DNA of 5,787 nucleotides from a virus (taxonomy: Duplodnaviria > Heunggongvirae > Uroviricota > Caudoviricetes), in the IMG/VR virus record IMGVR_UViG_2623620501_000014, positions 1 to 5,787 of that record. One strand, 5' to 3'. Positions within the stretch are counted from its first letter, which is position 1. The number at the start of each line of letters is the position of its first letter. Positions 1,596 to 1,787 of the stretch are shown piece after piece. Position numbers and translations under genes: made by a program. The notes under the pieces were generated by a model. That model saw nothing but the letters and a program-made list of their open reading frames with translations, was not told the DNA's origin and ran no database searches.

Positions 1596-1653
1596 GGTAT
1601 CCGTTCTGCTGAAGTGTCATGGCGTTGATTTTACGGTGACTCTTCGACAGTGA

Positions 1654-1678
1654 AAAGAAAAAAGGCCGCAGAGCGGCC
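1654..1678 (-). terminator. Rho-independent terminator, minus-strand specific
   Basis: Perfect 6-bp GC stem GGCCGC/GCGGCC (1664-1669 / 1673-1678) with a 3-nt loop. On the minus-strand RNA it is followed by UUUUUUCUUUU (plus A-run 1654-1663); on the plus strand the trailing sequence is AUAACC, not U-rich. Lies between the last prophage cargo gene and btuC. Confidence 0.6.
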
Positions 1679-1693
1679 ATAACCACAGACAAA

Positions 1694-1725
1694 AATCAAT
1701 AAGTTAGATAATTATCAAATACTTA
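1694..1725. promoter_or_regulatory. Two tandem IHF-consensus matches in an AT-rich tract (candidate att arm)
   Basis: AATCAATAAGTTA (1694-1706) and TATCAAATACTTA (1713-1725) both fit WATCAANNNNTTR. They lie in the non-coding AT-rich stretch between the host terminator and the first prophage gene. P2-type integrases are known to use IHF. AT-rich DNA can match this by chance. Confidence 0.3.
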
Positions 1726-1787
1726 CAGACACGTAAAAACACAACTAACCACAACAAGTAACAGAGATGTGGTCACTTTGTGGATCA

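Follow-up and report, generated by a model that had tools for sequence, protein, structure and literature searches.

The DNA analysed here, called the window below, is a stretch of 5,787 nucleotides that makes up positions 1 to 5,787 of the viral record IMGVR_UViG_2623620501_000014. Two host genes lie at its left end, both on the minus strand. The first is btuE (1-552, a 183-aa open reading frame), and the second is btuC (615-1595, 326 aa), whose product is the vitamin B12 ABC transporter's permease; both are annotated as such in matching genomes. Beyond btuC come a short host region (1596-1653) that is identical to E. coli K-12, a terminator, an AT-rich tract with two matches to the IHF consensus, and then phage genes, an order that the original prediction had described and that was found in full.

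The phage genes form a P2-type regulatory module. Genes for an integrase and a C-type repressor are on the minus strand, and an early operon diverges from them on the plus strand. The integrase (2734-3726, 330 aa) is a P2-type tyrosine recombinase with the Pfam domains Int_N and Phage_integrase, and is a member of phrog_1. It is 48% identical to the Int of the Peduovirus P2 record over 327 aa, and 48% identical to that of W-phi; the best match among sequenced phages, at 56%, is from a Klebsiella phage. The R..HxxR..H..Y signature of tyrosine recombinases is present, as is an N-terminal arm-binding region, where the match to Arm-DNA-bind_4 falls below threshold (E = 0.0097). R195, H270, R273, H296 and Y305 lie in motifs that are conserved when the protein is aligned with P2 Int, and are by our own reading candidate catalytic residues. 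The immunity repressor (3776-4087, minus strand, 103 aa) is of the P2 C type, with an HTH_3 domain (Pfam) and 47% identity to the C protein of the P2 record (E = 2e-32).

The first gene of the early operon (4183-4461, plus strand, 92 aa) occupies the position of cox or apl and belongs to phrog_11533, a family of unknown function. Its product shows no similarity to P2 Cox by BLASTP (E = 18), so that a homologue of this directionality factor is not found in the expected place, and sequence searches of Pfam, NCBIfam and the PDB gave no match. The protein may be a structural or functional analogue of Cox. The remainder of the operon (4476-5787, plus strand), delimited by open reading frames and domain searches, consists of a DUF4761 gene, a 92-aa open reading frame, a DUF4754 gene, several small open reading frames and a partial one from 5560 onward.

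Between int and the host DNA lie two further minus-strand genes, here called cargo genes. The one nearer to btuC (1788-2348) encodes a coiled coil with a C-terminal hydrophobic segment, and has a weak match to DUF1640/CCDC90-like proteins. Its start codon is uncertain, as relatives annotate a protein of 145 aa that begins with MSDKLERR. The other (2349-2747) encodes a protein of 132 aa of unknown function (phrog_4293) and overlaps the int stop codon by 14 nt. For the first gene PADLOC returned low-scoring coiled-coil matches alone (ZorA and LmuB, E >= 1e-4), and for the pair no function was found in Pfam, PADLOC or NCBIfam.

The boundary between host and phage can be placed by aligning the window with a genome in which the site is empty. 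In K-12 the gene order is pheT-ihfA-btuC-btuE-btuD, and ihfA and btuC are separated by a spacer of 100 bp; the original prediction had given this order, with a short spacer, and was right on both counts. It had also noted that ihfA is missing upstream of btuC, and indeed none occurs across the 4.2 kb of the window on that side. From btuC up to position 1678 the window is K-12 base for base, and from 1679 onward the two are unrelated. The alignment that the prediction had proposed thus located the junction, and the outcome that would have spoken against an insertion, an unoccupied locus identical to the window through 1596-1800, did not occur. Base 1678 is at the same time the last plus-strand base of a hairpin.

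That hairpin is part of a 25-bp sequence, AAAGAAAAAAGGCCGCAGAGCGGCC (1654-1678), which is the core of the attachment site. Read on the minus strand, it is the whole intrinsic terminator of ihfA, with a stem-loop at 1678-1664 and a T-run at 1663-1654. The terminator scan reports the hairpin as GGCCGCTCTGCGGCC, followed by TTTTTTCTTT. The hairpin is perfect (GGCCGC-aga-GCGGCC) and runs into the T-run, and its minus-strand fold is alike in the contexts of attB, attL and attR. The boundary of the prophage is therefore 1678/1679, or 1654 if the core is counted in.

Evidence for integration at this core can be provided by observing its second copy at the other end of the prophage. The window covers attL alone, and attR was studied in three related lysogens, CP015229, SE11 and CP025903, which match the window at 95-99.8%; from the attL and attR sequences of these lysogens, attP was rebuilt. 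A search for the exact 25-mer found it once in K-12 and once in every attL-side and attR-side locus that was fetched from the three genomes. The core is thus an exact direct repeat at both junctions in all three lysogens, as in att systems of the lambda/P2 type, and is single in the attB of K-12. The duplicated core that the original prediction had looked for is accordingly present. Its estimate that the other prophage end lies some 30 kb away was too low, the second copy being about 36-37 kb from the first in the related genomes.

In each of the three lysogens, attR consists of phage DNA, AAAGAAAAAAGGCCGCAGAGCGGCC, TTTTTAGTTAGATCAGA and then TTA, the complement of the ihfA stop codon. In CP025903, which is the closest genome and is 99.8% identical to the window, the gene at the far prophage end is ihfA. 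The distance from the end of the core to the ihfA stop codon is 17 nt both in K-12 attB and in lysogen attR, and IhfA encoded at attR is identical to that of K-12 at 99 of 99 residues. Because the 17-nt spacer and the protein are both kept, the phage must have integrated between the genes, with the entire ihfA terminator as its core. Judging from these relatives, the window's own genome would have an attR in which ogr and Hok/Gef are followed by TGTGGACACATCGTGG and, after some 40 bp, by the core, with the stop codon of ihfA 17 nt beyond it.

Taken together, positions 1596-1787 are very probably the attL of a P2-like (Peduoviridae) prophage of about 36 kb, which a tyrosine integrase has inserted into the intrinsic terminator of ihfA, within the 100-bp spacer. 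Neither of the neighbouring genes is damaged by the insertion.

On the btuC side, all 83 bp upstream of the gene (1596-1678) are native. This settles the question raised by the original prediction of whether btuC keeps its own upstream DNA, as the sole promoter-like match in this region is kept with it. The match has a -35 element TTTTCA (1656-1651), which reaches 3 nt into the core, a spacing of 17 nt and a -10 element TAAAAT (1633-1628); it scores 9/12, as a consensus match only. A literature search found no paper on a btuCED promoter. In Salmonella SL1344, RNA-seq detected no read-through from ihfA into btuC (PMC8942017), and btuC has for this reason probably never depended on ihfA transcription.

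The prediction had further expected the position of the junction to decide whether the terminator is host DNA or supplied by the phage. Since the terminator is contained entirely in the 25 bp that attP and attB have in common, this part of it does not hold: the two origins are undecidable from the sequence. They also make no functional difference. What follows from a terminator that is wholly within the shared block is that each lysogen has two identical terminators, one ahead of btuC and one after ihfA.

The phage part of attL (1679-1787) is the int-side arm of attP. It is conserved across lineages with different cargo. In five E. coli attL sequences and two regions from other genera, conservation extends over 1679-1787. 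The sequences part at precisely 1788, where the adjoining cargo gene, whichever it may be, has its stop codon. Two segments of the arm, AATCAATAAGTTA (1694-1706, plus strand) and TATCAAATACTTA (1713-1725, plus strand), fit the IHF consensus WATCAANNNNTTR exactly. Of the seven attL sequences that were aligned, six fit it at the first segment (strain C3 has ATA for TTA) and all seven at the second. Over the whole window the consensus is matched three times, against 0.32 expected, and three matches were reached in 0 of 200 shuffles. On the far arm a third match for attP, AATCAATTGGTTA, adjoins the core. These two conserved int-side matches and the far-arm match are candidate IHF sites.

Farther from the core, the arm contains a pair of direct repeats, TGTGGTCA and TGTGGATC (1768-1786, plus strand), which are 11 bp apart from start to start and are candidate arm-type sites for Int. 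The combined pattern TGTGGNNNNNNYGTGG, or TGTGG-N6-YGTGG, is matched at 1768-1783 and nowhere else in the window, where 0.03 matches are expected. At attR the far arm has a single occurrence, some 41 bp away from the core (position 12534 of L003 in CP025903 and 13424 of L005 in CP015229), so that arm-type repeats are found on both arms, as sequence motifs. In the Peduovirus P2 record the pattern occurs twice, once in each arm, and in many P2-family loci from other genera it directly follows int. The published consensus for P2-type arm sites is tgTGGaCa (PMC3448106). Arm sites, IHF bends and core would together amount to the standard attP architecture of the P2/lambda type.

Two other repeats were considered and rejected. 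The direct repeat TAACCACA, found at 1680 and 1746, was discarded as an Int site, its first copy not being conserved in other lineages. A 7-bp inverted repeat that flanks the core in the rebuilt attP (TGGTTAT ... ATAACCA) was discarded as a pair of core-type sites; it is absent from attB and its halves are too far apart.

A mechanism for integration can be proposed from these elements. The N-terminal domain of Int would bind the TGTGG-N6-YGTGG repeats of both arms (those at 1768-1786, and those about 41 bp past the core in attP), and its core-binding domain would contact the dyad-symmetric core. IHF would bend the int-side arm at 1694-1725, and, with a third site flanking the core on the far arm, the arm could be brought to the core. 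Strand exchange would then take place somewhere within the 25 bp of identity. For excision a directionality factor would be required, and the likeliest candidate is the 92-aa protein encoded by the first early gene.

The sequence shared by attP and attB is the whole terminator, and the core is found at both junctions after integration. At attR, the coding sequence of ihfA is preserved together with the 17-nt spacer on its 3' side and a full terminator; at attL, the 83 bp of native DNA upstream of btuC are preserved, and the other copy of the terminator lies ahead of them. The attL copy would halt prophage transcription on the minus strand, which covers C, int and both cargo genes, short of btuC. 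At attR the hairpin has T-runs on both strands, and should stop transcripts of ihfA as well as phage transcripts arriving from the ogr/hok side. Because of these two T-runs, the terminator carried by the phage probably serves the phage too, beyond being an att core.

P2-type recombination depends on IHF, and this phage is integrated beside a gene for one of the IHF subunits. A siting in which prophage transcription, or the second terminator copy, alters the expression of IHF-alpha or of BtuCED, and in this way couples IHF level or B12 uptake to lysogeny, could be imagined. Two candidate IHF sites are conserved in the attL arm, ogr and Hok/Gef at attR are oriented toward ihfA, and in Salmonella small changes in btuC expression were seen after rewiring of the ihfA locus (PMC8942017). 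However, the two host genes are unchanged in their coding and flanking sequences, with a complete terminator on each side, and the attR hairpin keeps a plus-strand TTTTT tail and so should also stop phage transcripts directed toward ihfA. Furthermore, the intergenic sites at which P2-type phages integrate are many and unrelated (PMC3448106). Such a coupling is improbable. An IHF-requiring phage next to ihfA is a pleasing coincidence, for which a function is unsupported.

An attL could also belong to something other than a P2-like phage, such as a P4-like satellite, an integrative island or a remnant that has kept its integrase. The window shows just the regulatory end of the element, the structural genes lying outside it, which leaves room for this idea. 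It can be judged from the related lysogens, in which the module of int, C and early genes is contiguous with a P2 structural set that ends at attR. The genes met there encode the replication endonuclease gpA, portal, terminase, GPO scaffold, P2-family capsid, gpM, baseplate, tail fibre, sheath, tube, tape measure, gpD and ogr. This is the P2-type structural and replication set Q, P, O, N, M, V/W/J/I, FI, FII, T, D, ogr and A; it is present in CP015229 and SE11 and, partly deleted, in CP025903. The size of the prophage, 35.8 kb in SE11 and 36.8 kb in CP015229, likewise argues against a satellite or a remnant. In favour of a remnant, the copy in the closest genome is riddled with insertion sequences and has lost its lysis and head-completion genes. 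Weighing these points, it is very unlikely that the insert is anything but a P2-like prophage.

The damage to the copy in CP025903 can be described more closely. One IS3 element, absent from the window, lies inside the DUF1640 gene (L002 21898-23111). A second IS3 and an ISEc20 of the IS110 family lie within the far att arm, between Hok/Gef and the arm repeat (L003 8947-10160 and ~11060-12520). In addition, gpM directly precedes baseplate V, and the head-completion, lysis and tail-completion genes of the CP015229 prophage are missing. With three insertion sequences and without its head-completion and lysis genes, this copy may be defective and unable to excise.

The related prophages also carry maintenance functions of a plasmid style that are outside canonical P2. 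ParM-like segregation and partition genes follow the replication endonuclease, a protein of 946 aa (L004 30656-31931), and a Hok/Gef toxin gene adjoins attR (L005 13074-13214; L003 10739-10879).

Many phages integrate into the 3' ends of genes or into tRNA genes. An element inserted in the 3' end of ihfA would have truncated it, and the terminator at 1664-1678 would then be purely phage-supplied. The original prediction had allowed for an insertion at either place, the ihfA-btuC interval or the end of ihfA, and its first option is the one borne out. It is true that the phage brings a host 3' element with it, namely a copy of the terminator. However, the block of identity ends 17 nt before the stop codon of ihfA is reached, and ihfA at attR is full length, encoding a protein 100% identical to that of K-12. 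A truncation of ihfA is for these reasons extremely unlikely, and insertion into the intergenic terminator is the reading kept below.

How common the occupied site is can be estimated from complete E. coli genomes, of which 5,426 were compared. The stretch from ihfA to btuC is unbroken in 5,118 of them and not contiguous in the remaining 308. The attL of the window, counted where at least 80% of 1596-1787 was covered, is carried by 304 (5.6%). Among the broken examples that were examined, the match ends at the equivalent of window position 1678 in two (H108 and H109) and at that of 1656 in a third (H110).

The ihfA terminator is also the target of a second kind of mobile element. In strain 98228, which has no prophage at the site, an IS200C lies beside the terminator (L007 6211-6960), and the match to K-12 and to the window ends at the equivalent of window position 1656, within the T-run of the core.

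The phage is found beyond E. coli as well. An exact-pattern scan for the attL junction GGCCGCAGAGCGGCCATAAMCACA in one genome per species gave no match, and a scan based on Int located the element in a genome of Salmonella and in an assembly labelled Vagococcus, where the junction bases are slightly different. In both, an integrase at 96% nucleotide identity lies beside a btuC that is 77% identical to that of E. coli. The two regions share the phage arm and nearly share the core. In Salmonella enterica s1 (L012, CP191473.1), the same phage occupies the same site with the same arm and nearly the same core, the loop of the hairpin being TAA instead of AGA; this variant might help to place strand exchange within the core. 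The other region belongs to Vagococcus sp. WN89Y (L011, NZ_JBQPOM010000071.1), in which a 226-kb contig bears an enterobacterial btuC and attL. This assembly is probably mislabelled or contaminated.

The opposite history, in which the occupied state is ancestral and K-12-type genomes have lost the element by deletion, has next to no likelihood, given that 94% of genomes are unoccupied, that K-12 has a single clean 25-bp core, that in lysogens two direct copies of the core enclose a complete phage, that the orthologous site is occupied by the same phage in another genus, and that precise excision is the same reaction as integration and so would leave the site an att site either way.

An isolated phage with this att/int module was not found in the phage collection, and attP was for this reason rebuilt. 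When 1640-4170 was compared by megablast with 50,697 phage records, just one partial hit was obtained, covering 8% and coming from Klebsiella. As no phage record matches the DNA of att, int and C, the integrase lineage is common as a prophage and absent as an isolated phage from the collection.

The cargo genes occupy a slot (1788-2747) whose contents differ by lineage. The window has the DUF1640/CCDC90-like gene and phrog_4293, SE11 has two other hypothetical genes (L008 2357-3156), and C3 has one (L006 6340-6735); for the SE11 and C3 genes the same searches were equally uninformative. The first cargo gene of the window stands next to attL in about 38 complete E. coli genomes. Owing to these genes, the distance from the arm repeat to the int stop codon (1786 to 2734) is about 950 bp, compared with less than 40 bp in most P2-family relatives.

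Hotspots for cargo in other P2-like phages have been described. The slot may be a place for morons or defence genes. Rather tentatively, it could be a third such hotspot of P2-like phages, in which lineage-specific, exchangeable genes with roles in lysogenic conversion or against other phages would be co-transcribed with C and int and ended by the terminator in the att core. Less likely still is the addition to this proposal that the siting at ihfA tunes the supply of IHF.

Beyond correct annotation, the results are of little consequence. The terminator ahead of btuC belongs to the att core, and genome annotators can treat the ihfA terminator as a recurrent att site. A P2-family integrase with a simple 25-bp terminator as its attB could add one orthogonal tool for genome engineering, although the gain would be incremental.

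The prophage site between ihfA and btuC is itself already known and common, having been published in 2008. An example can be found in PP_SE11-4, a P2-like prophage of E. coli SE11 that lies between btuC and ihfA with a 25-nt duplication (Oshima et al. 2008, DNA Res 15:375; PMC2608844). Its published extent is 1,928,706-1,964,507, or 35.8 kb (PMC2608844, Table 2), and its ends coincide exactly with the start of the core at attL and the base before the core at attR. The window has a junction of the same type, in the same spacer and with the 25-nt duplication, and shares with PP_SE11-4 the attL arm, the integrase family and the DUF4761/DUF4754 early genes. PP_SE11-4 has ogr and Hok/Gef at attR, as do the relatives of the window. 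The two differ in the cargo genes between int and attL, which in PP_SE11-4 are its two hypotheticals, and in the accession of the repressor. Only two points are slightly new: the cargo slot that separates int from attL, with its variable contents, and the lack of a homologue of P2 Cox.

P2-type integrases typically use intergenic sites, as a 2011 survey of regulation in P2-like phages describes; the ihfA-btuC site is not named there (PMC3448106). Compared with P2 and W-phi themselves, the window has an Int with 48% identity and the same domain order, a C-type repressor with 47% identity, and the same arrangement of int, C and a divergent early operon. Common to them are the pattern TGTGG-N6-YGTGG in both arms, its repeats set 11 bp apart, a placing of IHF consensus sites between the core and the arm sites, and an attB that is intergenic and not in a tRNA gene. 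Unlike P2 and W-phi, the window has the ihfA terminator as its core and attB, two cargo genes that hold the arm away from int, and no detectable Cox homologue, while the replication protein of its relatives is larger and accompanied by ParM-like genes.

Other P2-type cores may be similar in form. In the P2-family record NC_070905.1 (L010 2600-2625), a hairpin, CCCCCACATCATGTGGGGG, lies between the arm repeats after an A-run, which hints that terminator-like hairpins may serve as cores in other P2-type phages too.

Integration at dyad-symmetric host elements, such as the stem-loops of tRNA genes and terminators, is a general pattern in which the copy carried by the phage regenerates the element of the host. 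The window conforms to it, with nothing unusual: the core is a perfect hairpin with a T-run, and the phage copy restores the element at the far junction.
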